DNA from: a phage
Length of the DNA stretch: 64,000 bases
Sequence record: PX853108.1
Reading direction: 5' to 3' (one strand)
The notes under the pieces are model-generated. The model was given only the letters and a program-made list of their open reading frames with translations, did no database searches and was not told the DNA's origin. The translations under genes and the position numbers were made by a program. Positions 24,411 through 50,741 of the stretch are shown piece by piece. The stretch's first letter is position 1. The number at the start of each line of letters is the position of its first letter.

Positions 24411-24472
24411 TAACTGGCTTACTGTAGAGTAAGTTACCTATATACGATATAAGTTTGAATAGGAAACATGCT

Positions 24473-27400
24473 ATGTCAACATTTGACCGTCTGGCAGGTT
24501 TCGCAGACAGCATCACTAATGCTAAGCAAGTCGATGTCTCTACTGCAACCTCCCGGAAGCAAGCTGCACAGGGGCAAAGCCCTTTCCAATTAACCCCAGA
24601 TAATGCTTACAATCTACAGACTGGACGAGTAGGTAATCTTGGAATCGGTGCATACGAACCAGGTTCACTTCAGGCAGATTTCACTCAAGCCTCCCCCTTA
24701 GAAATCATTAATAAATATGGTAATGAGCAAGGTCTACAGATTCTTAATAGTCGAGCTAATGCTGCTGATGCTGTACGTCAGGACTTATCTAAACAACGTA
24801 CTAACGCAGAAGCATTTGGCGATATCCTTTCTGGTGTTGGTCTTGGTGTTGCTAATACCCTTGGGGGCATTGCTGCTCTTGGCACAGGCTTGGTCAATGA
24901 TAATGCCGGGGCATCCATTGCTTCCGGTCTTGACTGGTTGAATAAAGGTGTACACAACCTACAGTCCGATGCACTGAATGCTCGCCGTAATGTAGTACAG
25001 AACCAGAACGTAATATCTGCACAGGAAAATGAGAAACTCTATAAGCAAGATATTGCTAAAGGAGAAAGCGAACTCGTTGCTTCCCTGTCTCGCATTGGTC
25101 GTGATGCTTACGATTCTGTTGCTAATACCCTGTCTAACGGCATGGCTGCTACTGATGGTATTGCTGAAGGTGTAGGTTCTCTGTTTACTGGTGGCCCATT
25201 AATCCGTGGTGTATCTGCACTCGGTAAGGTAATGGTAGGTGGAGATAAAGCTGTTAAGGGTATTACCTTAGCTGCTGAGTTAGGTTCACGTCCTGCACGG
25301 ATTGCACAGTCTGCTGGTCGTGTTGCTGCACCTGCTATAGCAATTGGTGGTATGGAAGCTGGTGGTGCATACCAACAGACTGCTAATGAAATTATGGAAA
25401 TGCCATTCAGTGAACTGGCTGCTAAATCTCCAGTATACCAACAGCATATTAAAGATGGTTTATCTCCTGAAGAAGCACGTCGTCAGACTGCATCTGAAAC
25501 AGGTATTACTGCTGCTGGCTTAACTGCTCCAGTTGCTGCTCTTACTGGTCCACTGGTATCCAAGTTTGAACTTAACCCACTCAAGGTAGGTTCACTGGCT
25601 GGTGCTGGTTCTAACATGCTGCGTGAGACTGTAGAAGAAGGTATCCAGTCTGGTACAAGTCAGTTCGCACAAAACACTGCAATCAAGGAAAATGTTGATG
25701 CATCTCGTGACATCCTCAAAGGTGTAGGCGAACAAACTGGTCTTGGTGCATTGTATGGCTTTGGTTCTGCTGGGGTTGCTCAAGCTCCTGGTGCAACTGT
25801 TAAGGCTGCTGGTGCTGCCGTTGGTCCTGCTGTACGTACTACCCTGGCTGGTGCTTCTTTGGCTGGTAAGGCACTAGCAAAAGTAGCCTCCCCTATTACT
25901 AACATCCTGGTTCAGCGTGGTGAAGAAGTAGCTAAACGTAACGAACAGGCATCTCCTGTATCTGATGCTACGGTTAATGCTGCTGCACAGGAAGCTACTG
26001 CTCAGGCAGAACAGGCCCAGGCAACCGTACAGGAAGCAGTAGATGCAATGGATATTTCTCCAGAAGAGAAAGCTGCTGCTACCCAGTATGCTGCTGACTT
26101 AACTCAGGTAATGAAGTTTGATCCAGTAGAACTGGAACAAGCTAGCCCTACAGTCCGTGAAGCTGTTTCTGGTTCCACTAACCGTGTTGAAGCTATTCAG
26201 AAGATGGCTGACCTGGTTAATACTGCCGAAGACCCTAACGTTCAAATGGAAGCTGCAATCCAGATGTACGACAACATCATGTCTATGGATAGCTTCATTA
26301 ACCGTGACCCAGGTGCTCTGGCTAATCTGGAACAAGGCTCTCCTGCTGCTAATATCGTTGACCAATTCTCTGGCCTGATGGCTAACGTTCAGAATACACC
26401 GAAAGTACTTCGTGCATTCCGTGCTATTCATTCCATGATTCAGGAACAGGCAGAAGCAGGTAAACTGAAAGCTACTGAAGAAGCTAACCAAGCCCAGGCA
26501 AACAATATTGCCATGGCTGCTGATATGTCTCCAGAAGTACTGGATGCAGATTCAGTAAACATGGTTCTGAAACATGCAAGTGAAGGTAAGATTACACTGG
26601 GGAATCGTCAGCGTGCTGCCCTGCAATCTGCTGCTGCCTTGTTACAGGGTGCACGAGAATTTGACGCTAAAGCAGAAGAACTAGGCTTACGTCCTCAAGA
26701 CATTGTTAGTAAACAGATTAAAACCGACGAGTCTCGTTCTAATGAAGGCCAGTACTCTGCGTTGCAACATGCTAAACGCATTCGTTCTGCGTACAACTCT
26801 GGTAACTTCGATTTGGCTTCCGCTTATCTCGACGACTTTATGAAGTTCGCCCAGCACATGCAGAATAAGGTCGGAGCGTTGAATGAGCATCTGATTTCTG
26901 GGAATGCGGATAAGAATAAGTCTGTCCATTATCAGGCTCTTACTCCCTCCCGTGAATGGGTACGTAGTCGTACTGGCCTCGGTGTCAATCCGTATGATAC
27001 CAAGTCTGTTAAGTTTGCCCAGCAAGTAGGACTGGAAGCCAAGACCGTAGCTGATATTGCTAACGCACTTGCTACGGCTTACCCGGAGCTTAATGTTTCT
27101 CATGTTAAGGTTACCCCATTGGATTCCCGTTTGGACAAGCCTGCTGCCCAAGTAGTTAAAGAGTTCCGTCAGGGCAATCTTGATGCTGCTCAATCCCAAC
27201 AGACCAATGAACCAGTGAATCAGGTTGATGAATCTCCTGTTACAAAACAGGAACCAGTTACCCCTACTGTACAGACTAAACCCTCTGTTAGTGAAGCTGT
27301 TAAAACAGAACCTACTATTAAAGAGTCTAAACCACAGACTGCAAAAGAACCTGAGAACCAGTCTGAAAAACAGGATGCTGTTGAACAGCCTACTGAATCT

Positions 27401-30400
27401 GAAAGGGATGCTTATGTAAAAGAGAATACTATTTCTCAAGAAACTCTTAATAAGTATGGTGACCGTAGGGAGAGTCCTTGGCTATTTGCTGATGGTACTG
27501 TTGTTGGTTCCAATGGTGACCATATCAGCCTGTCTGATGTATTTGGTCATGATGGTTATCGTGACATGTCTTTGGATACTGGTGCTGTACGTTCTACTTT
27601 CTACAAAGGAAGTGAGCAACCGTTCGTATCCCTGCAATTGTTTGATAATCAGAAGCTAACTGCTGAACAATTCAATACTGTTCAATCATTCGTAGAAGCA
27701 AACAATGCACTGATTCAGATTGGTGTAGATACATCTGGGCTTAATACCAATAACGTTGAGAAAGAAGAAGTATCACTGGCTCAACTGAAAGCAGACTATA
27801 CCGTTGGTGGTAAACCCCTATCTCAAATGGAAACAGTGTTCCCTGTCTATAACAATGAAAAGACATCGAACCAGTTCCTTAAAGCATTTTCTCTACCAGA
27901 GGAGCCTAAGTCTCGTACCATTGGTTCTGAATCTCCTTTGACTGATGTTAAGAAAGCACTGTCTTCTGCTGCCCGCTTTGAAGCATTCACTCAAAAAGAA
28001 AATAACGCACTCACGAGTGATGTGATTAAGCGTTACCAGGATTTGTTTGATTTTGGTGAAACTTTGAAGACCACTCTGTCTGACCGTCTGGCTAAGTTCC
28101 TTGCTAACAAGAACGTTGGTAAACGTTTTGCAGAAGGTACTGAGGCTAACCGTTGGGTGGGTGGTAAGTTACTTAACATCGTAGAGAAAGATGGTGATAC
28201 CTTTAAGTTCAACGACCAGTTGTTAGAGACTGCTGTACTTGCAGGTTTGCAATGGCGACTAACTGCTACACAGAATGCTGCTGTTAAAGACATGAAAGAC
28301 GTAGCTGCTATTACTGGTGTGGAAGCATCTCTGCTACCAGAAGGTATCCTCGCAGAGTTTGAGAATGCTCAAACCTTAGTAGAGGCTACTAACTCACTGG
28401 CTCAGAAGATTGAATCCTATTGGGGGCTTAATCGTAATGCTGATGCACCATTGGGTTATACCAAGGGTATCCCAATGGCAATGGCTACAGAGATTCTGTC
28501 TTCTCTCATTGAGATGGGTGAAGTTAAAGAGTCCATGCTGGATGTGTCTGAGATTGACCCAGAATCTAATAAGACCGTTGGTTTGTATACCATTGAGAAG
28601 TTAGATGATAACGATGCCATTAATAAATTCCCTACTGCTATTGAGGAAGCAGTCCTTCTAGAACCAGTAGAGAAATTGTACTTGGGTGATGATATTCCTT
28701 CAGTGGCTCAAACTCAGTTACGTAACCCGGCTGTCAAGAATACCCCGGAACAGAAAGCTGCTCTTAAAGCAGAACAGGCTACTGAGTTCCGTGTACACAT
28801 GCCCATGGTTAACTTCTATGAAGCATTGGGTCGTGACAACATTCTGGAATTGATGGGTGCTGGTGCTCTTAACCCAGAATTGCTGAATGTGAATACTGCT
28901 AAATCTCTGGAAGGTAAAAACCTGTCCGTGTCTATGGCATATGATTCCTTGTTTGGTGTTATCAATCAGATTAAGGAACAGGAGAATGGACTGGATACAC
29001 CTATTCACTATGGTTACAACATGACCCGTGTAGGTCGTATGCAGATGCTTGGTAAAAATAACCCACAATCCAGTAAGCTGGTCCGTGAAGCAATCTTACC
29101 AACCTTCTCTACCATCGACTTGAGCAATGAAAACAGTCAAACGTTCTCCGATTTCCAGTTAGGTCTGGCTCAGGCATTGGGCATCAAAGTTCATAAAATG
29201 TCTCGCGAAGTTATGTCAGATGAACTGACTAAAGCTCTGGAAGGTAAACTGAAACCTGCCGTTGATATGATGGTTGAGTTTGATAAGTCTGGACACTTAC
29301 CTACTGATGCAGTGGATATTCTGAAGACCTCTTTGGGTAATGATAAATCATTTGTAGCTCTCATGGCTCTTATGGAATATGCCCGTTACCTTAACAGTGA
29401 TGACCGTGCCAACTTTAATACCCCACTGTACGTTGAAGCTGATGGTGTAACCAACGGACCAATCAACGCAATGGTATTAATGACTGGTGGTAAGTTCACC
29501 CCAGACTGGATTAAGAATACTGCTAAAGGTGGCTTGTTCTTCGGTAAAGCTGGCAAGACTATGAACGAGCATCATTCGCACGAGGACAGTGTTGACCTGT
29601 ATGAAGCATCCACTAATGGTCTGCAACAAGCACTGAATGAATTACGTAGTACTTACCGTAACAACGTTCCTGTTATGAACCAGATGAACCATCTCCAGAA
29701 ATTAATGGACCTGTTCATTAAAGATTTCAATCTTAAGGAAGATGGTACTCTGGACCTGAAACGTGGTATTGCGAAAAACCCACTGACCATTACCATTTAT
29801 GGTTCTGGTGCTCGTGGTATTGCTGGCAAGATGGTTAGTGCAATTACTGATACCATCTACGAACGCTTCAGTGACGTTCTACAAGCTCGTGCTGCTGACC
29901 CTAGCATTTCACCAGCTATGGCTATGTTTGGTAAGGAGGCTGCGTCTGAGGCTGATGCTCAGGCTATGCTGGATACTTTCCTTACTTCTATGGAAGCATT
30001 GACTGGCAATGTTCCGGTTATGCGTAAAGGTGAGTTGTCTATTCAGCAGGTAGAAGGTGCTCTGACCGGTAAATTAGACCCTCAGAAGTTTACTGTATCA
30101 GGCAATGCTCTGAAGAATTTACAAGAGAACATGCTTCACTTGTTCGTTGAACCAATGCGTACTGGTATCCGAAATACTGTTGGCGAAGGTTTGATGTACT
30201 CTACTGAGAATTTGCAGAAGGCTACCCAGATTCAGTCTCTGGTATTGCAGGATATGTTCCAACAGGCAGTACAGGCTAAGCTGGCAGAAAAAGAAAAAGA
30301 CCCAACATGGAAGAAAGGTGATTTCTTAACACAGAAAGAACTGAATGAAATCCAGAATAGCTTAGCTCCACTGGCTCCAATGATTGAGACTGGTTCACAG

Positions 30401-33400
30401 ACTTTCTACATTGCTGGTAGTGAGAATACTGATGTTGCTAACCAAGTATTGGCTACTAACTTAGATGACCGTATGCGTGTACCAATGAGCATCTATGCTC
30501 CTTCACAGGCAGGCGTTGCAGGTATTCCGTTTATGACCATCGGTACTGGTGATGGCATGATGATGCAGACCCTTTCTACTATGAAAGGTGCTCCGAAGAA
30601 TACCCTGAAAATCTTTGATGGTATGAACATTGGTATCAACGATATCACCGATGCAAGCCGTAAAGCTAATGAGGCTGTATATACTTCCTGGCAGGGTAAC
30701 CCTATCAAGAATGTTTATGATTCCTTTGCTAAGTTCATGAAGAATGTAGACTTCAGTAAACTGTCTGATGAAACCAAACAGGCTATCGCTAAGTCTGCTC
30801 TGGAGTATGACCAGCGTGAGGGTGCTACCGATGACCTGTTACGTGTTGGTGCTGAACAGATTGAACGTAACCTGCGTAACATTGCTTTGGGTGTAGATAT
30901 TCGTCACAAGGTAATGGACCAGGTACAGGTCACCGTTGACCAGATGGCTGCTGTTGGTGCTCCTTACGTGAACAACGGTAAAATCTCTCTGGAAGGTCTG
31001 ACTGTAGACCAGCAAGTAGCTAAGCTGAACGAACTGTTTGATGCTGAATTAAACAAACGTCGTGATGCAGTTCGTGCTGCTAAAGCAGAACCAGTGAAAG
31101 AAGTACCGGCTATGGAGAAGGTTGGTCGTGTACTGAAGTCTGGTGTACGTCTGTTGTCTAATACTGCCATTACTAAGCTGGCTAAAGAGATGTCTCCTGA
31201 ACAGCAAGCAGTATTGAAAGAAATACAGAAATCCCTCGCTGCTAAAGACTATAAGGTTGTTTACGGTACACCTGCTCAACTGGATGCTTATGCTATTGAG
31301 AAGAATATTACTCGCCCAGCACCGGAAGATATTGAAGCTGCTGAAGCTGGTAATGCATATGGCTGGACTAACTTTGAAGATAAGACCATCTACTTAGTTA
31401 CCCCTTCCTTAGAGACTCTGGTTCATGAATTGGTACATGCTACTACTTTTGAATCTGTACTGGCTCATTATGAGGGTACTCCTAATGAAGCAGTACAGAA
31501 TATTGAAGACCTGATGAACCAGTTCCTTACTCTGGATGTTAAGGATGAATCTCCGGCTGTACGTGAAGCGTATGCCGATGCACTGAATACCATTAATGGT
31601 CATTTGTCTAATGGCTTCATTGAACCCGCAATGGCTAAAGCTGCTGCATTGAACGAGTACATGGCTTGGGGTTTAACCAACCGTGAACTGATTAGCAAGC
31701 AGAAGAAAACTACTGCACTTAAAACTATGGTTCAGGCTGTATATGAAGCAATCAAACGTCTGGTATTTGGACGTAAGAAAGCTCCAGCTAATGCAGATGA
31801 TATGTTCTCTGGCTTACTGTTTAACTCTGCTGTAGTAATGCGTGGGCAAGCTCCTACTGCTGCTGTAGCTAAAGACACTACTCTGTTCCATAACAAAGCA
31901 TATGGTGACAATACTCGTCTGGAAGAGTTAGGTAAGACCTTTGATAAACTGATTACTGACTACATTGGTTCAGAACCAGTACAGCAAGTAATTCGTAAAG
32001 GTAAATTCTCTGATGCAGTAGTGAATGCAACTAAAGTAACCCGTGATGTTCAGGCTCATGGCTTCACCATGAATATGCAGGAACAACGCCTCTTCACTAA
32101 CATTGTTGCTGCATTGGCTACTGAGGCTGCTATTAACCCTGCTGCTCTTGCTCGTGCACAGGAATACTACACGCATGTTACTAAAAACCTGACTGTTGAA
32201 GCATTTATGGCTGACCCTGATAGTACTAACCCTGCTGACCGTTATTATGCACAGCAGAAGTTCGATACTATCATGGGTGCTAACAACATTGAGTTTGATG
32301 CACAAGGTCGTTCTTCCTTACTGCCTACCTTTGTTGGTCTGGCTATGGTAAGTGAAGAAGTACGTAAGGTTCTGGCTGATATTCCTGTTATGAAAGCAGA
32401 TAAGAAATCAGGCAATACTGTTGACGCAATGCTGACTAACATTGGTACTGCTGCAATGGCTAGCCTGAATGCTCGTGTAGCAGGTGATACTAAAGCCACT
32501 AACGTACAGGAAGGTATGGATGCACTGGCTCAGACAATCATGCAGACCAGTCTTAATGCAGAATCCTTCTATGATTCCGTTGCTACCCCTACTGGTAATG
32601 CTATCGACCGTGCTAACCAGTATCTGGTGGATTCTATTGATGTACTGTCTACCCGTGCTTTGGAAGGTGCTCGTGAAGTTGCAGCTAATACCAAGAACCC
32701 GTTGGTTAAAGGTGCTGCTCATGCTGCACAATTGGTAGCTGCTATTGCTACAGAGAAGAATGGTGCAATCGTAGCCGAAGGTGTTATGGCTGCAATGAAC
32801 CAGGGTAAAGTATGGCAACCCTTCCATGACCTGGTTAATGACATAATCGGACGTACTAAGAGCAATGCTTCTGTATACGATTTGATTAAAGCAGTTCGTG
32901 CACAGGTACAGGCTGACCGTCAACAGTTCCGTGAACACTTGCCTACCACTATCGCATCCAAGTTCAGCCGTAAGCTGACTAATGATGAGTGGAAAGCAAT
33001 GCATACAGGTATGGGTAAAACTGACTTAGCTGTTCTGCGTGACACTATGTCTCTGGATGAAATCCGTGACCTGCTGTCTGACCAAAAGATTGTTGACCGT
33101 GAGGTTAATAAACTGGAAGCAGATTTGCAGAAACAAGCAGGACGTAACTGGCCTCTGATTAGTCGTAAATCTAAGCAACTGGCTCAGTACATGATTAATG
33201 GTACGGTTGGTAATAACCTGTTGCGTAATGCTACTGCAATTTCTCGTTTACTGGGTGAACGTAAGACTACACGTTCTGTTGTAGATGTAGCTCAACTGGA
33301 TAAACTCATTACCCTGTATGCACTGGAAGCAATGAATAAAACTGACCGTGAGATGTTATCTTCACTGGCTCAGACAGAAATTGAAGGTATGGACTTTGCT

Positions 33401-35227
33401 ACTTCTTACCTGGTTGGTCAGCGTAAAGATGAAATGGCTAAAGCTAAGTCTGATAGTCGTGCAACCCTGAACCAGTACAAAGGGTATATTCCTGGTGAGA
33501 ACAAACAGGGTGTTAACCTGATTGTTGCTGAAGATAGTCAGTTTGCTGATTTGATTGAGAAATCCTATGTACGACTGGGTACTTATCAGGGTAGCTCTGC
33601 TAATCGTGGTCCAGCACGTAGTTACTACTTTGCACCGGTACAGGCACAGGCTCCATTCTCACAAGGTATCCTACAGAACGTTCGCAATACTGCTGGTGGC
33701 GTAGACCTTGGCACAGGCTTTACGATGGGAACCATGGTAGCTGGTCGTATTACTGACAAGCCTTCTGTAGACCGTATCACTAAAGCACTGGCTCGTGGTG
33801 AACGCGGTAATGAACCACTGCTGCCTGTATATGATGCCAATGGTAATGTGGTTGCTTACGAGCAATCCATTGACCCTAACATGCTGAAGCACATCGAAGG
33901 TGAGAACCATCTTGCTCGTGCAATTGGTGTATGGCGTGGTCGTCAGGTGGAAGAAGCTAAGGCTCAGCGTTTCAACGATATGCTGATTGAGAACCTGCAT
34001 AGCATGTACGAGAACGACATTAAGATGTCTGCTTCTAATAAGTCCCAGTACGTTAACCTTCTTGGTTCGAAACTGGACCCAGTAACTGCCGATGCTCTTA
34101 AACTGATGAACAGTGAAACTCGTCAGAAAGCAGAAAGTCTGTTTGGACCGGGTGAGTTGTGGGTACGTCGTGACATGCTCAACGATGCACTGGGTTATCG
34201 TGCAGCTTCTGTTGGTGATGCCTGGTCTGGTAATTCTCGTTGGTCCCCAGAAACACTAGATACCTTCAAGAAAGCTATGCTGGGTGTCTTTGGAAACCGT
34301 GCTTATAAGTACGTAATGGGTGGTGAGAATCTGGTTCAAAACTTAGTTAAAGAAGCCAAGACTCTGATTGTAGTTAAGTCAGTAGTCGTACCTGCTGTTA
34401 ACTTCCTGGCTAACCTTTACCAGATGGTTGCTCGTGGTGTACCTGTTAAGAACATTGCTAAGAGCATCCCACAGAAAACTGCTGAGATTAATCAGTATCT
34501 GAAATCTCGCCTGCGTCAGGTAGATGCAGAAGCAGAATTACGTGCAGCTACTAACCCTAACCAGATTCGTAAGCTGAAGGCTGAGATTCAGTCCATCACG
34601 GATAGCCATAAGCGTTTGAGTATCTGGCCTCTGTTAGAAGCTGGTGAGTTTTCTTCAATTGCAGATGCTGGTATTGGACGTGATGACATCCTGATTACTG
34701 AAGGTAAACTTCACGAATACATGGAAAAGCTGGCTGATAAGTTGCCTAAGTCTGTACGTAATGCTGGTCGTTATGCACTTATCACTAAGGATACTGCTCT
34801 CTTCCAGGGTATCCAGAAGACGGTTGAGTACTCTGACTTTATTGCTAAAGCAATCATCTATGATGAACTGACTCAGCGTAAAGGTAAGACCCGAGAAGAA
34901 GCACTCGGACGTGTAACGGAAGAGTTCATTAACTATGACCGTTTGCCTGGCCGTTTCCGTGGGTATATGGAAAGTGTTGGTCTGATGTGGTTCTACAACT
35001 TTAAGATTCGTTCTGCAAAAGTTGCAGTGTCCATGATTCGTAACAACCCAGTACATGCTGCTATGGCTATGTTGGCTCCAACTCCTACCATGTTTGGTAA
35101 CGTTGGTCTGCCTATTAAGGACAACATCTTTAGTATTGCTGCACAGGGCAACCTCGGTTACTCCTTCGGATTCGGTATGGGCTTACGTGCCCATACCCTG
35201 AACCCGTGGCTCAACCTCACTAACTAA
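24473..35227 (+). CDS. Virion-encapsidated RNA polymerase (N4 gp50-like giant vRNAP)
   Basis: ORF 24455-35227 begins at TTG; first ATG with RBS AGGAAA is 24473 (~3,584 aa). Central region has T7-like motif A (ADGVTNG, nt ~29423), motif B (RGIAKNPLTITIYG, nt ~29762) and motif C (IFDGMNIG, nt ~30611). Confidence 0.85.
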   Translation: MSTFDRLAGFADSITNAKQVDVSTATSRKQAAQGQSPFQLTPDNAYNLQTGRVGNLGIGAYEPGSLQADFTQASPLEIINKYGNEQGLQILNSRANAADAVRQDLSKQRTNAEAFGDILSGVGLGVANTLGGIAALGTGLVNDNAGASIASGLDWLNKGVHNLQSDALNARRNVVQNQNVISAQENEKLYKQDIAKGESELVASLSRIGRDAYDSVANTLSNGMAATDGIAEGVGSLFTGGPLIRGVSALGKVMVGGDKAVKGITLAAELGSRPARIAQSAGRVAAPAIAIGGMEAGGAYQQTANEIMEMPFSELAAKSPVYQQHIKDGLSPEEARRQTASETGITAAGLTAPVAALTGPLVSKFELNPLKVGSLAGAGSNMLRETVEEGIQSGTSQFAQNTAIKENVDASRDILKGVGEQTGLGALYGFGSAGVAQAPGATVKAAGAAVGPAVRTTLAGASLAGKALAKVASPITNILVQRGEEVAKRNEQASPVSDATVNAAAQEATAQAEQAQATVQEAVDAMDISPEEKAAATQYAADLTQVMKFDPVELEQASPTVREAVSGSTNRVEAIQKMADLVNTAEDPNVQMEAAIQMYDNIMSMDSFINRDPGALANLEQGSPAANIVDQFSGLMANVQNTPKVLRAFRAIHSMIQEQAEAGKLKATEEANQAQANNIAMAADMSPEVLDADSVNMVLKHASEGKITLGNRQRAALQSAAALLQGAREFDAKAEELGLRPQDIVSKQIKTDESRSNEGQYSALQHAKRIRSAYNSGNFDLASAYLDDFMKFAQHMQNKVGALNEHLISGNADKNKSVHYQALTPSREWVRSRTGLGVNPYDTKSVKFAQQVGLEAKTVADIANALATAYPELNVSHVKVTPLDSRLDKPAAQVVKEFRQGNLDAAQSQQTNEPVNQVDESPVTKQEPVTPTVQTKPSVSEAVKTEPTIKESKPQTAKEPENQSEKQDAVEQPTESERDAYVKENTISQETLNKYGDRRESPWLFADGTVVGSNGDHISLSDVFGHDGYRDMSLDTGAVRSTFYKGSEQPFVSLQLFDNQKLTAEQFNTVQSFVEANNALIQIGVDTSGLNTNNVEKEEVSLAQLKADYTVGGKPLSQMETVFPVYNNEKTSNQFLKAFSLPEEPKSRTIGSESPLTDVKKALSSAARFEAFTQKENNALTSDVIKRYQDLFDFGETLKTTLSDRLAKFLANKNVGKRFAEGTEANRWVGGKLLNIVEKDGDTFKFNDQLLETAVLAGLQWRLTATQNAAVKDMKDVAAITGVEASLLPEGILAEFENAQTLVEATNSLAQKIESYWGLNRNADAPLGYTKGIPMAMATEILSSLIEMGEVKESMLDVSEIDPESNKTVGLYTIEKLDDNDAINKFPTAIEEAVLLEPVEKLYLGDDIPSVAQTQLRNPAVKNTPEQKAALKAEQATEFRVHMPMVNFYEALGRDNILELMGAGALNPELLNVNTAKSLEGKNLSVSMAYDSLFGVINQIKEQENGLDTPIHYGYNMTRVGRMQMLGKNNPQSSKLVREAILPTFSTIDLSNENSQTFSDFQLGLAQALGIKVHKMSREVMSDELTKALEGKLKPAVDMMVEFDKSGHLPTDAVDILKTSLGNDKSFVALMALMEYARYLNSDDRANFNTPLYVEADGVTNGPINAMVLMTGGKFTPDWIKNTAKGGLFFGKAGKTMNEHHSHEDSVDLYEASTNGLQQALNELRSTYRNNVPVMNQMNHLQKLMDLFIKDFNLKEDGTLDLKRGIAKNPLTITIYGSGARGIAGKMVSAITDTIYERFSDVLQARAADPSISPAMAMFGKEAASEADAQAMLDTFLTSMEALTGNVPVMRKGELSIQQVEGALTGKLDPQKFTVSGNALKNLQENMLHLFVEPMRTGIRNTVGEGLMYSTENLQKATQIQSLVLQDMFQQAVQAKLAEKEKDPTWKKGDFLTQKELNEIQNSLAPLAPMIETGSQTFYIAGSENTDVANQVLATNLDDRMRVPMSIYAPSQAGVAGIPFMTIGTGDGMMMQTLSTMKGAPKNTLKIFDGMNIGINDITDASRKANEAVYTSWQGNPIKNVYDSFAKFMKNVDFSKLSDETKQAIAKSALEYDQREGATDDLLRVGAEQIERNLRNIALGVDIRHKVMDQVQVTVDQMAAVGAPYVNNGKISLEGLTVDQQVAKLNELFDAELNKRRDAVRAAKAEPVKEVPAMEKVGRVLKSGVRLLSNTAITKLAKEMSPEQQAVLKEIQKSLAAKDYKVVYGTPAQLDAYAIEKNITRPAPEDIEAAEAGNAYGWTNFEDKTIYLVTPSLETLVHELVHATTFESVLAHYEGTPNEAVQNIEDLMNQFLTLDVKDESPAVREAYADALNTINGHLSNGFIEPAMAKAAALNEYMAWGLTNRELISKQKKTTALKTMVQAVYEAIKRLVFGRKKAPANADDMFSGLLFNSAVVMRGQAPTAAVAKDTTLFHNKAYGDNTRLEELGKTFDKLITDYIGSEPVQQVIRKGKFSDAVVNATKVTRDVQAHGFTMNMQEQRLFTNIVAALATEAAINPAALARAQEYYTHVTKNLTVEAFMADPDSTNPADRYYAQQKFDTIMGANNIEFDAQGRSSLLPTFVGLAMVSEEVRKVLADIPVMKADKKSGNTVDAMLTNIGTAAMASLNARVAGDTKATNVQEGMDALAQTIMQTSLNAESFYDSVATPTGNAIDRANQYLVDSIDVLSTRALEGAREVAANTKNPLVKGAAHAAQLVAAIATEKNGAIVAEGVMAAMNQGKVWQPFHDLVNDIIGRTKSNASVYDLIKAVRAQVQADRQQFREHLPTTIASKFSRKLTNDEWKAMHTGMGKTDLAVLRDTMSLDEIRDLLSDQKIVDREVNKLEADLQKQAGRNWPLISRKSKQLAQYMINGTVGNNLLRNATAISRLLGERKTTRSVVDVAQLDKLITLYALEAMNKTDREMLSSLAQTEIEGMDFATSYLVGQRKDEMAKAKSDSRATLNQYKGYIPGENKQGVNLIVAEDSQFADLIEKSYVRLGTYQGSSANRGPARSYYFAPVQAQAPFSQGILQNVRNTAGGVDLGTGFTMGTMVAGRITDKPSVDRITKALARGERGNEPLLPVYDANGNVVAYEQSIDPNMLKHIEGENHLARAIGVWRGRQVEEAKAQRFNDMLIENLHSMYENDIKMSASNKSQYVNLLGSKLDPVTADALKLMNSETRQKAESLFGPGELWVRRDMLNDALGYRAASVGDAWSGNSRWSPETLDTFKKAMLGVFGNRAYKYVMGGENLVQNLVKEAKTLIVVKSVVVPAVNFLANLYQMVARGVPVKNIAKSIPQKTAEINQYLKSRLRQVDAEAELRAATNPNQIRKLKAEIQSITDSHKRLSIWPLLEAGEFSSIADAGIGRDDILITEGKLHEYMEKLADKLPKSVRNAGRYALITKDTALFQGIQKTVEYSDFIAKAIIYDELTQRKGKTREEALGRVTEEFINYDRLPGRFRGYMESVGLMWFYNFKIRSAKVAVSMIRNNPVHAAMAMLAPTPTMFGNVGLPIKDNIFSIAAQGNLGYSFGFGMGLRAHTLNPWLNLTN

Positions 35228-35233
35228 ATGAAA

Positions 35234-35255
35234 AAGCCCCTCTAATGAGGGGCTT
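35234..35255. terminator. Bidirectional intrinsic terminator at the plus/minus convergence point
   Basis: Stem AAGCCCCTC/GAGGGGCTT with TAAT loop, 7 nt after the vRNAP stop; the minus-strand side has a TTTTTCATTT tract. Confidence 0.6.
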
Positions 35256-35290
35256 CTGCTAGTACTCATACTTGATGTGCTGTAAAGGAT

Positions 35291-35524
35291 TTAATCACAT
35301 TTTTTCCACATCTTAGGCTTACGCCCTTCACTTGGAAATTTACCAGTCTCTTTAATCTTCCGTAGCATTTCCTCTGATGGGAACCACAGGAATGAGAAGT
35401 AAAGTTTCTTAGCTACGTAACGAGTTACTCCTAGTTTCTCTGCGATTTCATCAAATGAATATGTACGAACAGTATTGTTGAGAATGGCTTCACGAACAAC
35501 AGAGGTAATAGATACTTGTGTCAT
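35291..35524 (-). CDS. Small DNA-binding (HTH-like) protein
   Basis: 77 aa; FDEIAEKLGVTRYVAKK resembles a helix-turn-helix; last gene of the minus-strand block. Confidence 0.4.
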   Translation of the reverse strand: MTQVSITSVVREAILNNTVRTYSFDEIAEKLGVTRYVAKKLYFSFLWFPSEEMLRKIKETGKFPSEGRKPKMWKKCD

Positions 35525-35545
35525 GCTATTTTCCTATAAATGAGA

Positions 35546-35566
35546 AAGCCCTCACTAGGAGGGCTT
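35546..35566. terminator. Second hairpin terminator (plus-strand oriented T-tract) inside the minus-strand block
   Basis: Stem AAGCCCTC/GAGGGCTT with 5-nt loop, followed on the plus strand by GTTTTGTTTTGG. Confidence 0.45.
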
Positions 35567-35647
35567 GTTTTGTTTTGGCTTCATGAGCCTTACTACTTTG
35601 TCGGGTAGTTCAGTACCTTTCGGTAAAAACTACCTTACACCTTTGAA

Positions 35648-36028
35648 TCAGATTGTACAACCACCACCGTCACAGGTATTGTTCTCTGCAAAGGAAGCCA
35701 GAGCCTTAGCAGTCTCTTCTTTCTCATGTAGTGCCTGACGTAGCAGGTAACCCTCTAATTCCCAAATCTTATTGAATGCATTTTCATATGCATACTGACG
35801 GCCCTTTTGCTCATCATAGATAGTCGGGTCTACACAGGCAGATACGCCTTCGACTTTGAATCCATTTTCCAGAATTATTACACAATAGGTTACCAGACCC
35901 AGGTTAGCCAAATCATCTGCCGGTAGTGCAGAGGGGTCAACGAATGCAGACTTCACTGCATCTGCACCATTAAAATAGTAGACGCTCTTAATCTTAGATT
36001 CGATTGCTTCTTTACTTACTGTTGCCAT
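35648..36028 (-). CDS. Hypothetical protein
   Basis: ORF 35648-36040 trimmed to the internal ATG (MATVSKE); C-terminal Cys-rich tail (CDGGGC). Confidence 0.4.
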   Translation of the reverse strand: MATVSKEAIESKIKSVYYFNGADAVKSAFVDPSALPADDLANLGLVTYCVIILENGFKVEGVSACVDPTIYDEQKGRQYAYENAFNKIWELEGYLLRQALHEKEETAKALASFAENNTCDGGGCTI

Positions 36029-36174
36029 TATTAGCCTCATAGAGTGGTTTGAGTTTGTACTTAAACATGACTGCGTTGTTATAGGCTACGCTACCTGCAA
36101 ATACCAAGTATTTATGTCCTCGATTATCCGTTACCTCATAGGCATACGGGGTAGAGATTAGGTCAATCATAACT

Positions 36175-36450
36175 TCAGCTTAGTGTTGTTGATTTAACAT
36201 AGGTTTCCCGGAATATATCCGGTTTACAAGGATATAACTCCCCATGTATGCCCTGGATAATATAGTCATTAGGTGAAGCAGTTAAGATACCCTCCAAGGT
36301 TCTAATACATAATTTACTATCATTCCCAGAGAACCAGACTACCCCATTACGAAGGGCATCTACTATCCAAGCTGGTTCTTTGTTCAGATTAAGACTTCCG
36401 TCCCATTGAAAAGCTTCAATCTCAACAGGTTTTTTACGATATTTAGCCAT
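36175..36450 (-). CDS. Hypothetical protein
   Basis: ORF 36175-36558 trimmed to ATG 36450 (MAKYRKKPVEIEAFQWDG), which has AGGAGA at 7 nt; the longer form would run through a terminator hairpin. Confidence 0.45.
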   Translation of the reverse strand: MAKYRKKPVEIEAFQWDGSLNLNKEPAWIVDALRNGVVWFSGNDSKLCIRTLEGILTASPNDYIIQGIHGELYPCKPDIFRETYVKSTTLS

Positions 36451-36467
36451 AGTATTTCTCCTACTTT

Positions 36468-36497
36468 CAAATAAAAAAGTCCCTCCGAAGAGGGACT
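36468..36497 (-). terminator. Intrinsic terminator (minus strand) downstream of the tRNA region
   Basis: Stem AGTCCCTC/GAGGGACT with CGAA loop; the minus strand reads the hairpin followed by TTTTTTATTT. Confidence 0.6.
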
Positions 36498-36754
36498 TAG
36501 TAGCTTTAACGCAGCTAACGAGGCTTGTATGAGTGCTAGGATTTGTAACTCCCAGCATATCCCCACCGTTTTAGCTGACGGCAAACAGAGATTGATAGTC
36601 TCAGAGGATACTTTACTCAGGCGAGTATTATAGTCTACTCATACTCACACTACCCTAACGGGTAGTATGTTTGCAATACCTAGAGTGCCGGACTGTCTCA
36701 CCGGCATTGTCTTTAGAGTGCAATGCAATCAGGACTATGTTCTCTATTAATGAG

Positions 36755-36828
36755 TACCCACTACTGGATTTGAACCAGTGACCTTCCGATTATTAGTCGG
36801 TTGCTTTCCCCGTCTAAGCTAAGTGGGC
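36755..36828 (-). tRNA. tRNA, hand-folded anticodon AAT (Ile?); no encoded CCA
   Basis: Minus-strand sequence GCCCACT-TA-GCTT-AGACGGGGA-AAGC-A-ACCGA-CTAATAA-TCGGA-AGGTC-ACTGG-TTCAAAT-CCAGT-AGTGGGT-A: 7-bp acceptor (G1-U72), D arm, T arm with TTCAAAT loop, 7-nt anticodon loop with U33 and A37. A34 is unusual. Confidence 0.7.
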
Positions 36829-36833
36829 ATAAA

Positions 36834-36909
36834 TGGTTACCCGGACAGGATTCGAACCTGTGTCCTAGTTGGTTTACTAGTGGGGCTTTACCACTAAGCC
36901 TACCGGGTA
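36834..36909 (-). tRNA. tRNA-like gene with encoded CCA but non-canonical anticodon arm
   Basis: Minus-strand TACCCGG-TA-GGCT-TAGTGGTAA-AGCC ... ACAGG-TTCGAAT-CCTGT-CCGGGTA-A-CCA: perfect acceptor, D and T arms; the anticodon region CCACTAGTAAACCAACTAGG folds only as a 5-bp stem with 6-nt loop or 4-bp stem with 8-nt loop. Confidence 0.6.
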
Positions 36910-37493
36910 TTAATGAGTGAGTCACGCCAGACTTTAACTGGCTCCTTCTTCGCAATCCTTACATACCCCTACATAATTATTGCGTTAAGCTTTTTTGTTT
37001 AAGTTTAAGTGAAGGCGTTCTTGCTGACTCATAATAGGTTGGGCGTTTGACGAATGACTAGTTCGTTACTACCCGTTTGCCATAAGTACCTGGCGACTTT
37101 GGTTTGAGGTGGGAGTCCGAGTCCTGTACAGCCTTACCGTTCACACATTGGCAGCGTATCTAGAATAGCACTTCCGGCAACTGGATTTAACTGTTACACC
37201 TCAAATCTGGTAGGGGCGTCCAGAAGTCTCATCTGGTACTTACGCCGTCGTATGGTTACGACTTACCCCCATAATCTTTCTAATTCAGAGTAGCACTGCT
37301 CCACGTTTGGCCTTTGAACTCCGGGATGGATTAGTGCAATGCTACTTTGAATTAGTTGTCAGGGATTCCACCTGGCTCCATCTGTTTTTATAGTCACTCA
37401 GATATCGTCTGGACTCTTTACTATGGGACTCACCGGCTACTTAGAGTAACTACGGTAAATATTATTCCACAGCTTACATTGATGTCGCATCCC

Positions 37494-37577
37494 ATCAAAG
37501 AGTACACTAGCACTGGGCCACGCATAAGTGGGCATCGGCCTTCCTCCCACAGCTAATCTACTAATGTACTCATTGAT
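37494..37577. repeat. Repeat unit A bounded by 17-bp imperfect terminal inverted repeats
   Basis: 5' end ATCAAAGAGTACACTAG and 3' end CTAATGTACTCATTGAT are reverse complements at 15 of 17 positions; followed by a GC hairpin at 37582-37608. Confidence 0.5.
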
Positions 37578-37749
37578 TGGCCCCCCGTTTCTAATACATG
37601 GACGGGGGAACTCCACGGTCGTTTGATAATCAGGACGACTCACTCCTGACTGACGCTTGGCTTATTAGGCTGCCATCAGAACAACATCATCGTTTGCATT
37701 TATGTTATTGGTTCGTTTCTAAAAAACCGCATAATCGCTTACGAAAACT

Positions 37750-37850
37750 ATCAAAGAGTACACTAAGCACAGGTAGCTATCCTGCCGTCTTCTCCACCTA
37801 CACCGGCTACAGTGTAAACCTCCGCACGTTAGCTTAATGTACTCATTGAT
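37750..37850. repeat. Repeat unit B, second copy of the TIR-bounded element
   Basis: 5' ATCAAAGAGTACACTAAG and 3' CTTAATGTACTCATTGAT (16 of 18 complementary); ends nearly identical to unit A, interior diverged but shares CTTC(C)TCC(C)AC. Confidence 0.5.
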
Positions 37851-38035
37851 AGGATGTCATAATAGGGGAGGGAGGACGAGTCCCTCTTTACCCTATGATT
37901 TAGTTTGCATGTAAGACCTAACAATTCGATGCTGTAGGTAGCTATGCTATCCGACATTTAACCCAGCCCATATAGGGGCTTATGTGATTAAAATGCTCAA
38001 CATTGAGCGGTTAGTTGATAAGGGATCTGAAGCCT

Positions 38036-38063
38036 TATCCCAAAGATACTAACCTTTGGGATA
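38036..38063. other. Perfect 10-bp stem hairpin in the ORF-free region
   Basis: TATCCCAAAG-ATACTAAC-CTTTGGGATA; neighbouring hairpins at 38080-38105 (AATGGCC / CCTATAGGGAGA loop / GGCCATT) and 38164-38194 (CTGACG...GGGG-GGCCA-CCCC...CGTCAG). Confidence 0.4.
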
Positions 38064-38582
38064 TAGCCTAAGATTCAGAAATGGCCCCTATAGGGAGAGG
38101 CCATTGATTAACCCGAATGTTGCTTTACCTTTTATGTGATAACCCATTCTTAAAATAGTCTAGCTGACGGATGGGGGGCCACCCCTAGCGTCAGTGCCAT
38201 ACGGCAAAGATTAAGTTAAGAAAGGTTATGATAGGAGTTCCTATCTCAAAGGATTCTAACAGAACCCTTCACGATATTAACTACTCAACGTGAAATTCTT
38301 TGATTCCCTCGACAGGTTCTACACCCCAGGAAAAAGCTAACTTTTCCATTTAATTTTGATTGAACCAATGGACTGGGGAGAGTATTCCAATCCACTGGTT
38401 CGGTTGTTGTTGTTACTCTGGCGGCTTGTCACCACCGTTTTTATCACTGAGTTTCCAAAGTATAAGCACAGTGATGATAAATGCTATGTATGGAGCCGAC
38501 ACGTCCAGAATCCTGATAAGCAATAGCATCAGAATTACGAACACTACCACAAATAGCAGCAGCTTCTGAGCCACCTACCAGA

Positions 38583-39023
38583 TTAACTACGTTTAAGGCC
38601 AGCGAACAGTGAAGGCTTAGTAGCAGGTTTCTCTGCTGGTTCTTCAGCCTTAACTTCTTCCTGCACAACTTCTTCTTGTGCTTCTGGTTCAGTCACTGCT
38701 TCTTCTTTAGGTTCCGGCGTAGAACTCTCGTTCTGACCACCAGTAGAGGTCTGGGTTTCTTCTACCTTTACCTCTTCAACTACTTCTTCCGGCTCTGATT
38801 CTACTGGACGGTGTTTAGCTTCTTGTGGGTTCTTACGAGAACGACGAGTTTTCTTCTCTACTCCCACGGGTGGGGTATCTTCGTGAACCTCTTCGTTGAT
38901 GCCTACGGAGGCTGTACCATCTGCATTGATGACAATATTAACGTCACCAGCAAGATTGATTTGATCATCGACATAAGCCTGTACAGCAGCTTCTACTTCG
39001 GACTGGTTCAAAATGATTTGCAT
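38583..39023 (-). CDS. Acidic low-complexity protein (hypothetical)
   Basis: 146 aa; C-terminal half extremely Glu/Pro/Val-rich (EEVVEEVKVEETQ...); first gene downstream of the ORF-free region on the minus strand. Confidence 0.45.
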   Translation of the reverse strand: MQIILNQSEVEAAVQAYVDDQINLAGDVNIVINADGTASVGINEEVHEDTPPVGVEKKTRRSRKNPQEAKHRPVESEPEEVVEEVKVEETQTSTGGQNESSTPEPKEEAVTEPEAQEEVVQEEVKAEEPAEKPATKPSLFAGLKRS

Positions 39024-39024
39024 A

Positions 39025-39579
39025 TTACGCCTTTAATAACTTAATAAGGTTCTGGAAAGCTGGGAGATTTACACCAGCATGGATTGCACCGATTGCATCA
39101 GCTAAGTGCTCATTCTTATTCAGAAGTTTGCCCTTCTTATCTGTGAGCCAGTTGGCTTCAGGATAGAAGGCATGAGCAGCACGAATCATCGTGTCTTTGG
39201 ATGCGGTTTTATCACCGACCAGTGCAAGTTTGTTTTCAATTGGGGATACTTCAAAGATTGGACAACCCAATGCACGAAATGCACCTATTAATCCTACGCA
39301 TACTCCATAGGATTTCATACCATTAGCAGACTGGGAGCCTACTGGTACTTCTACGAATACTGCTTTAGCAGACCGTAACCATTCCTCACAACCAAGAAAC
39401 AAATCGTGAGCGGCTTGTATATCTTTGGAGTTGGTTCGAACTTGTTTGTTGTGGTCAACTTCAGTTTGAACCAGTTTAAGTTCGACCTGCTCGAAGACGC
39501 CGGACTCAATGTCCAGCGTCCCACGAGCTAAACCCCAATTGCGGAGACTAATGTCTGCACCAACAATTGGGATTTTCAT
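39025..39579 (-). CDS. RuvC-like Holliday junction resolvase
   Basis: 184 aa; N-terminal IVGADISLRNWG (catalytic Asp), FVEVP, and C-terminal HLADAIGAIHAG resemble RuvC-fold motifs. Confidence 0.5.
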   Translation of the reverse strand: MKIPIVGADISLRNWGLARGTLDIESGVFEQVELKLVQTEVDHNKQVRTNSKDIQAAHDLFLGCEEWLRSAKAVFVEVPVGSQSANGMKSYGVCVGLIGAFRALGCPIFEVSPIENKLALVGDKTASKDTMIRAAHAFYPEANWLTDKKGKLLNKNEHLADAIGAIHAGVNLPAFQNLIKLLKA

Positions 39580-40376
39580 TAACGTTTACCGAACAGTGAT
39601 TTACCACCAGCAGGAGTAGTACTCGTGCCAGCACCTGGTTTAGGAGGTAAGCCACCTTTACCATTACCACCAGCAGAACTCTTAGTCTTGTCGCGAGTTT
39701 TGCCTTTGTTCTTCTCCAGCCATGCTGCGTAGAATACAGCCAGTTCTGGGGTCAGCTCTTTTTCAGCCTTCTCTGCTTCCTGAGCCTCGACGACTGTGAC
39801 CAGCAGTTCCGGGTGAAACACTTTCTGAATCTCGTTTACTTCACGGGTTTCACCGGAGTCAACGTAGCCGTTGTCACCTTTAACCTGCTTGGATTCCAGA
39901 ACTTTTTCCAGAGCGAAGGTAACAGTCTGGTTTACCAGATCAACTGGAACCATGACAGACTTATTAACTTCTGCTTTAGCATCGAAATCGTAGACTTTAA
40001 CAATCTTCTCTTCGAAGTCTGCTTCAGGCAGTTCAGTACCAGTAGCCATTAGCATCATGTCGTTAATGACAGTGTAGCCAGGCAAGAAGTATTCTTTACC
40101 GTTCTTCTCGTAAGTAGGCTTGTTGCCTTTAGCATTACCAGAAGTGAAATATACCTGAGCACGGAACTCACCAGCAGGTACGCCATCTGAGTTTTTCATG
40201 TCATCAATGATTAACTGCATCCAGTCTGCCCCAGAGTCAGCTTTGCCTACGTAAGCTACTTTTACATTACCGGTGTAGATATCGGTTTCTTTTGCACCGA
40301 AGCCACCTCCACCCAGAGAGTCTTTAACAGCTTCAACGTTTTTGGTTTTTTCTTTCAGATTACTGAACAATGACAT
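39579..40376 (-). CDS. Single-stranded DNA-binding protein (N4 SSB-like)
   Basis: 265 aa, the length I recall for N4 SSB; Gly-rich N- and C-terminal tails; sits between the resolvase and the recombination ATPase. Assignment by position and composition only. Confidence 0.45.
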   Translation of the reverse strand: MSLFSNLKEKTKNVEAVKDSLGGGGFGAKETDIYTGNVKVAYVGKADSGADWMQLIIDDMKNSDGVPAGEFRAQVYFTSGNAKGNKPTYEKNGKEYFLPGYTVINDMMLMATGTELPEADFEEKIVKVYDFDAKAEVNKSVMVPVDLVNQTVTFALEKVLESKQVKGDNGYVDSGETREVNEIQKVFHPELLVTVVEAQEAEKAEKELTPELAVFYAAWLEKNKGKTRDKTKSSAGGNGKGGLPPKPGAGTSTTPAGGKSLFGKR

Positions 40377-50679: not shown

Positions 50680-50741
50680 AGCTTATTTCCTCTTCAAATA
50701 TAGCCTCACTTTATTATAAGTGAGGCTATTTGAACAGGCTA

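Follow-up and report, generated by a model that had tools for sequence, protein, structure and literature searches.

The interval at 36500-36660, on the minus strand of the 64,000-nucleotide stretch of DNA analysed here (the window), appears with a probability of roughly 60% to be the distal half of a 3' external transcribed spacer (3' ETS), that is, the trailer of a phage cluster of tRNA and non-coding RNA genes. A preliminary description had proposed at this place a small RNA of its own, about 140 nt long and transcribed from a TATAAT. Part of that proposal stands, in that covariation, agreeing folds and the fold z-score all point to a non-coding, highly structured minus-strand RNA element that ends at a terminator. 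The self-contained unit starting from TATAAT is not supported; the structure starts after tRNA-Ile (36754) and not at 36620. As judged from the comparison of related genomes, which defines the location, fold, conserved loop, modular exchange and dispensability of the element, the RNA has probably been processed from the trailer of a tRNA operon and is probably not a small RNA with its own promoter.

The window comes from a Gamaleyavirus, an N4-like coliphage. Region 36400-38700 is matched by 172 phage records, most of which are Escherichia phages of the genus Gamaleyavirus (Bp4, ECBP1, PD38, St11Ph5, and G7C). The genes beyond the virion RNA polymerase lie on the minus strand, and the trailer has the orientation of the middle genes, the late genes running the other way. 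Between the stop of the gene at 38583-39023 and the terminator there is no ORF longer than approx. 80 amino acids, and the same stretch of 1.7-2.3 kb is found in every relative with enough flanking sequence, including one whose neighbour protein is just 51% identical. When the trailer was compared by blastn with 5,426 genomes of E. coli, no match was returned, and the trailer was thus not copied from a host small RNA. A survey of the open-access literature returned no relevant description of non-coding RNAs or transcriptomes for Gamaleyavirus or N4. The features that frame the trailer are as follows:

24455-35227, plus strand: ORF of the virion RNA polymerase of an N4-like phage, 3,590 aa
36834-36909, minus strand: aberrant tRNA-like gene with a 6-nt anticodon loop (ARAGORN 'tRNA-??? 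(ac)'; Rfam tRNA, 42 bits)
36754-36828, minus strand: tRNA-Ile, anticodon AAU, the last tRNA before the trailer (ARAGORN; Rfam tRNA, 64.8 bits)
36469-36498, minus strand: intrinsic terminator with a 9-bp stem, a UUCG loop, and the tract UUUUUUAUUU
36448-36462, minus strand: ribosome-binding site AGGAG (36462-36458) and ATG (36450-36448) of a 91-aa gene
36469-38412, minus strand: ORF-poor cluster, corresponding to 32112-33632 of the N4 record NC_008720 (8113-9633 of our N4 locus, L047), in which nothing is annotated

The non-coding trailer begins where tRNA-Ile ends (36754) and extends over approx. 285 nt up to the terminator. Its position is that of a 3' ETS: it lies directly 3' of tRNA-Ile, is separated from it by no terminator (the scan gave no minus-strand terminator-like site between the tRNAs and 36498), and ends at an intrinsic terminator; phage Moo19 shows the same order. 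The CCA of tRNA-Ile is not encoded, its discriminator A being followed by CUC, and the wobble position of its AAU anticodon is A. The tRNA calls at 36754-36828 and 36834-36909 come and go among relatives, which carry Ile, Cys(ACA), Ala, Thr, or Val.

The strong terminator noticed earlier is real: a 9-bp stem, AAGUCCCUC-UUCG-GAGGGACUU (36498-36477), is followed by UUUUUUAUUU down to 36469. Of the 10 terminator-like sites in 35000-40000, a region for which shuffled sequences give 3.6 +/- 1.8, it is one of the strongest, and it is kept in all relatives and in N4 with changed, covarying stem sequences. The next gene does start approx. 18 nt past the terminator, as had been noticed, with its ATG (36450-36448) lying 18 nt beyond the U-tract; the 91-aa product has no Pfam match. 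The claim that the interval holds no ORF is true in substance, since the frames at 36175-36558, 36384-36584, and 36529-36633 represent an upstream read-through extension of the 91-aa gene or short chance frames, and relatives replace or delete the stretches that they overlap in non-triplet blocks. At least four different genes (the 91-aa gene, a gp48-like gene, a 52-aa gene, and others) lie downstream of the kept trailer and terminator in relatives. As the downstream gene varies while the trailer is kept, the trailer belongs to the upstream unit. Most minus-strand intergenic gaps have a GC-rich hairpin and U-tract directly ahead of the next ribosome-binding site, and at least six cases other than this one make it the usual layout of these gaps. 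Such hairpin/U-tract sites may be both terminators and start signals for a phage polymerase.

The anatomy of the trailer was defined by comparing the window with approx. 50 related loci taken from phage records, IMG/VR, and metagenomes. Against shuffled sequences, the fold z-score of the trailer is -5.06 for the minus strand vs -3.33 for the plus strand. The hairpins previously noticed inside the interval are real and covary. From tRNA-Ile towards the terminator, the modules are as follows, all on the minus strand:

36681-36746, minus strand: module A, a closing stem UAGAG/CUCUA around the hairpin GCCGG-UGAGACAGU-CCGGC (36705-36687)
36646-36669, minus strand: module B, a variable hairpin CAUACUACCC-GUUA-GGGUAGUGUG, seen in the folds
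36623-36640, minus strand: module C, hairpin GAGUA-GACUAUAA-UACUC, seen in the fold
36557-36611, minus strand: module D, a three-way junction, seen by covariation and in independent folds
36611-36604 and 36564-36557, minus strand: outer stem of module D, GUAUCCUC/GGGGAUAU
36602-36588, minus strand: first hairpin of module D, GAGA-CUAUCAA-UCUC
36592-36598, minus strand: heptaloop CUAUCAA of module D, made of invariant columns (CYAUCAA across relatives)
36581-36566, minus strand: second hairpin of module D, CCGU-CAGCUAAA-ACGG
36535-36556, minus strand: module E, hairpin GCUGGGA-GUUACAAA-UCCUAGC, seen in the folds, in the window and PD205 only
36527-36650, minus strand: long-range helix of GUGUGAGU (36650-36643) and ACUCAUAC (36534-36527), seen in the minimum-energy and centroid folds
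36501-36517, minus strand: module F, hairpin UAGCU-GCGUUAA-AGCUA, seen in the folds

Module A is present in all relatives, including N4, to which it is 83% identical. Its hairpin has compensatory changes at three pairs and occurs in the versions GCCGG/CCGGC, ACUGG/CCAGU, and, in N4, AUUGG/CCAAU, and its closing stem reads AGCAG/CUGCU in G7C-type phages; RNAalifold, when run on a MAFFT alignment of the module, misses this closing stem through a gap shift. Module A directly follows the last tRNA both in the window and in Moo19, which has five tRNAs of which the last is tRNA-Ile; in N4, which has four tRNAs, module A and the trailer come after further non-tRNA blocks and not directly after the tRNAs. 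The site of module B is occupied by other hairpins in relatives. In the window, the fourth pair of module C is U-A; ZQ2 has U-G at this point, and Bp4, St11Ph5, pSb-1, and phi G17 have C-G. In other lineages, the module is replaced by GGAG-AAUAGGAA-CUCC or AGUG-AAGGUAA-CACU. In PD205, a G-U pair of module E has become G-C. The long-range helix encloses modules C, D, and E as one domain; it is specific to the window and is not kept in PD205 or Bp4. Module F carries a compensatory change, UGACU/AGUCA, in G7C-type phages. The modules are exchanged as blocks or deleted between genomes whose flanks are approx. 93% identical: B to E are missing from U1G and nithesis, D and E from phi G17, and D from N4 and two metagenome loci. 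In the minimum-energy fold of the whole trailer, the 5' strand of module A is paired with the 3' strand of the CUAUCAA hairpin; this pairing was rejected, as it is unsupported by the relatives.

Across relatives, module D consists of a loop stem of 3-4 bp, usually accompanied by a second, variable hairpin, inside an outer stem of 5-15 bp. The heptaloop is CCAUCAA in KP8 and in one further locus (L015). Fifteen stem versions occur in three genera (Gamaleyavirus, Moovirus, and Kaypoctavirus), several of which share ancestry because the relatives are closely related overall. In an alignment registered by hand on the loop and the pairing, so that the pair counts lean towards structure, 91.1% of cells are paired vs 58.8% in shuffles, and 11 of the 12 pairs show changes on both sides, i.e., are compensatory. 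The covariation score is 0.859 vs 0.247 in shuffles, none of the 500 shuffles reaches 0.859, and sliding the partners out of register lowers pairing to 35-48%. A control that is free of alignment bias was obtained by folding each variant alone; this recovered the architecture in 11 of 14 single-sequence folds vs 0-2 of 300 flank shuffles. Of the 50 related loci, 39 have the CYAUCAA hairpin, and its distance from the hairpin of module A, which lies 5' of it, is 82-98 nt in every case; just 8 such hairpins occur elsewhere in 606 kb. The G-U pairs of the module are on the minus strand. Owing to the covariation, the independent folds, the fixed position, the strand of the G-U pairs, and the z-score, the structure of module D is considered real and is assigned to the minus-strand RNA. 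Module D is absent from N4, U1G, nithesis, phi G17, and two metagenome loci, and it is therefore dispensable; because several viable relatives have lost it, the element is accessory and not essential. The RNA motif is new, and the kind of locus that carries it is a known one.

The main alternative concerns the TATAAT, which is indeed present on the minus strand at 36632-36627. The hexamer might be a -10-only promoter for host sigma-70, possibly activated late like the late promoters of N4, which are weak, activator-dependent sigma-70 promoters (PMC4496689). It would then give a primary RNA of approx. 150 nt (from about 36620 to 36470) containing modules D, E, and F and the terminator, with a start approx. 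7 nt downstream of TATAAT, just before module D. The related phage LUZ7 does make late intergenic small RNAs (PMC9163698). A perfect TATAAT is also rare in this genome: the window holds 11 copies vs 48 +/- 6 in shuffles, a four-fold depletion that suggests selection against host -10 hexamers. The hexamer is kept in the window, Bp4, St11Ph5, ZQ2, pSb-1, phi G17, and one further locus (L035), which could mean that it is used, and other lineages have AT-rich hexamers (TTAAAT, TAAAAT) at the same place; N4 RNAPII promoters are defined only as an AT-rich stretch from -7 to +2 (PMC4496689). Against a promoter, there is no usable -35 (the earlier description had called it weak), for the hexamers at 16-18 bp spacing (GGTAGT, GGGTAG, and AGGGTA) match TTGACA at just 1-2 of 6 positions; a TG extended -10 is absent (the preceding bases are GAC); and a consensus promoter scan makes no call at TATAAT. 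The promoter-like sites in 35000-40000 are at shuffle level (7 vs 8.4 +/- 2.6). TATAAT coincides with the loop of module C plus the first base of its 3' arm, and the bases that flank it covary as a hairpin, although this covariation amounts to a single pair and is only suggestive. A start at this point would cut off hairpin C and the 5' strand of the closing helix (36650-36643), which lies upstream of TATAAT, and the hexamer faces the same way as the middle genes and not as the late genes. Module D occurs without the TATAAT module in PD205 and in the G7C, IME11, Bas96, Moo19, and KP8 types, and most of the 39 loci that bear it lack TATAAT; in PD205, a D and an E almost identical to those of the window follow a different module C that lacks TATAAT. 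A second TATAAT (50718-50713) likewise sits in a hairpin loop before a gene, AGCCUCACU-UAUAAUA-AAGUGAGGCU (50680-50741, minus strand). Because it is absent from most relatives that have the same junction, TATAAT is unlikely to be a required promoter and is better read as the loop of hairpin C, and a sigma-70 start at this site is on balance unlikely.

The trailer might also be a decaying leftover of the tRNA cluster that has no function of its own, its hairpins being relics or a protection of the upstream tRNAs against 3' exonucleases. The region is mosaic, parts of it are deleted in the viable phages U1G, nithesis, phi G17, and N4, the tRNA genes of the cluster come and go, and ARAGORN in its lax mitochondrial mode calls module D a reduced tRNA. 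That call is limited to a setting that also yields three antisense false calls in 287 nt, however, and decay would leave unexplained a seven-base loop that stays fixed while its stems have been rewritten 15 times in three genera, compensatory changes that keep pairing, and the fixed position of the module; a mere block to exonucleases would not need a conserved loop. A functionless remnant is accordingly given a low probability. It is very improbable that the trailer is a cis-acting leader, i.e., an attenuator or riboswitch controlling read-through of the terminator into the downstream gene. The terminator that immediately follows the structured junction does end 18 nt ahead of the start of a gene, but this gene varies between relatives in which trailer and terminator are the same, a hairpin and U-tract ahead of a ribosome-binding site is the usual layout here, and a conserved pairing alternative to the terminator was not seen. 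N4 promoter hairpins have a stem of 5-7 bp and a loop of 3 nt. They bear on the least probable of the alternatives, in which the hairpins act as single-stranded DNA and serve as a signal for a phage polymerase, a primase, or an origin. Conservation limited to complementarity and a loop would suit such a signal, yet the stems of 3-4 bp with a loop of 7 nt are unlike those N4 hairpins, the G-U (in DNA, G-T) pairs are found on one strand only, and the element is flanked by tRNAs on one side and a terminator on the other, both on its own strand. The N4 virion polymerase does use DNA hairpin promoters, and RNAPII of LUZ7 may recognise hairpins too (PMC4496689, PMC9163698).

The trailer is the 3' end of an ORF-poor cluster of tRNAs and non-coding RNA, 1.5-2.3 kb long, whose place in the genome is the same in N4 as in Gamaleyavirus, Moovirus, and Kaypoctavirus. 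In N4, it corresponds to an unannotated gap of 1.5 kb between gp47 and gp48, in which four good tRNAs (Rfam, 50-77 bits) are interleaved with blocks common to this window. One of these blocks, 37198-37110 (minus strand), contains no tRNA and is 98.9% identical over 89 nt to positions 33231-33319 of the N4 record, a much higher value than for the blocks next to it. The closing stem that flanks the block covaries (UUGAGGUG/CACCUCAA vs GUGGGAUG/CAUCCCAC), the block has no Rfam match, and only some relatives carry it; either tight constraint on an RNA or a recent exchange of this piece could account for it. A second non-tRNA block, 37415-37349 (minus strand), is 91% identical over 68 nt to 32803-32870 of the N4 record. 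Two elements of approx. 90-105 nt, at 37852-37748 and 37579-37492 (minus strand), are each closed by a stem of about 16-18 bp (AUCAAUGAGUACAUUA ... UAGUGUACUCUUUGAU), and N4 has an analogous long-stem element of different sequence. In the first (37852-37748), CUAUCAA opens the stem and UUGAUAG, which is exactly complementary to the loop of module D, closes it; a weak permuted-tmRNA match at 37665-37768 (33 bits; gathering score 47) overlaps the 3' end of this element.

At the 5' border of the cluster, directly after the upstream gene, a hydrophobic ORF of 53 aa with a GTG start (38413-38574, minus strand) shows approx. 70% nucleotide identity with N4. It has no Pfam match but is probably a real small membrane protein, so that the non-coding stretch begins at about 38412. 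Just inside this border, at 38363-38400 (minus strand), there is a 14-bp hairpin, AACCAGUGGAUUGG ... CCAGUCCAUUGGUU, of which relatives have the compensatory versions GUCCCCUUU/GAAGGGGAU and GUGGGCAGG/CCUGCCCAC. A stretch overlapping it, approx. 38285-38395 (minus strand), seems to be the deletion-damaged remnant of a small ORF whose start codon is kept in relatives (it begins MNKFTIHWLNGKVSSF...).

The trailer does not fall into an Rfam family. Rfam searches, run both with the gathering score as cut-off and with E values up to 10, recovered only the two tRNAs. Weak matches to STnc100, CRISPR-DR46, the Phe leader, and Ysr49 were rejected, since all rest on the terminator hairpin; that to STnc100 (RF02076) reaches 24 bits vs a gathering score of 47, with its aligned identities mostly in the terminator. 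The tRNA model (RF00005, threshold 29 bits) has no match in 36440-36753 at E up to 10, and ARAGORN in its standard, relaxed, and tmRNA modes finds nothing on the trailer. The reading of module D as an 'Asp(atc)' tRNA, which is the lax mitochondrial call mentioned above, was discarded as noise. Covariance models of GOLLD and ROOL match neither the window at the gathering score nor 36300-38800 at E up to 10. A complement of the loop, UUGAUAG, lies at 37754-37748. A kissing pairing with UUGAUAG/UUGAUGG in the closing stems of the two upstream long-stem elements was considered and rejected: the co-occurrence is not strict, and one related locus (L037) has module D without a complement. Among phage mRNAs, no loop complement lies near a start codon.

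The closest parallel in position is the leuZ 3'ETS of E. coli and Salmonella, which is also non-coding, lies directly 3' of the last tRNA of a polycistronic unit, ends at the intrinsic terminator of the operon, and is cut from the tRNA precursor by RNase E (PMC5222698). The two RNAs share no similarity in sequence or structure, however, and the phage trailer is approx. 5 times longer, is multi-modular, and contains a conserved hairpin loop. Phage-encoded stable RNAs other than tRNAs are exemplified by species 1 and 2 (rnaC/rnaD) of the tRNA cluster of T4, which belong to the same unit as the phage tRNAs and whose function has long been unknown; T4 is of another phage family, so homology is not expected. 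GOLLD and ROOL are large structured non-coding RNAs found beside tRNA genes in phages and prophages. Each has a single large conserved fold, whereas the phage trailer is made of small modules that are exchanged or lost singly. Module D itself resembles a tRNA anticodon stem-loop or a reduced tRNA in its seven-base loop, short stem, and acceptor-like closing stem, and CUAUCAA shows the pattern of U33 and a purine at position 37. Unlike tRNAs, which keep U33, it has C at loop position 2 in KP8 and L015; it also lacks a T-loop, a D-arm, and CCA, and it fails the tRNA models. LUZ7, an N4-like Pseudomonas phage, likewise produces short intergenic non-coding transcripts, some of which are seemingly processed, but these come from a different genome position (between the late genes orf69 and orf70) and from a different genus (PMC9163698).

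On the reading of the trailer as a 3' ETS, transcription would come from upstream, run in the same direction as the middle genes across the tRNA-like gene and tRNA-Ile, and stop at 36498-36469. Since CCA is not encoded in tRNA-Ile, maturation of the 3' end of this tRNA requires a cut, and the likely site would be the AU-rich, single-stranded ACUCAUUAAUA just after the tRNA, with RNase E or RNase BN/Z as the putative enzyme. The cut would free a trailer RNA of approx. 285 nt or smaller stable pieces; we infer co-transcription with the tRNAs and release by tRNA 3' processing, and likewise the 5' end and the stability of the product. The loop CYAUCAA would be the functional contact for a protein or RNA partner: as the stems change freely and need only pair, function would presumably be exerted through the loop. 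It may be speculated, at a low probability, that the CYAUCAA junction is a trans-acting RNA with an anticodon-loop-like heptaloop bound by a host or phage factor, acting either as a decoy for a tRNA-targeting nuclease or modification enzyme or as a kissing partner of an RNA of the cluster.

If the CYAUCAA junction does act in trans, the whole ORF-poor tRNA region of 1.5-2.3 kb in N4 and its relatives would be an island of structured RNAs, so far undescribed, which pass between phages in the manner of accessory genes. Although N4 serves as a model phage, its gp47-gp48 region, in which tRNAs are interleaved with conserved non-tRNA blocks, is unannotated in the reference record. The motif that the trailer contributes to this region is backed by covariation; its loop is fixed, and its stems are exchanged rapidly. 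The occurrence of the motif in three genera and its loss in some isolates is the pattern expected of an accessory element for interaction with the host. If the trailer is functional, trailer-derived RNAs would be extended from bacterial tRNA operons to phages.
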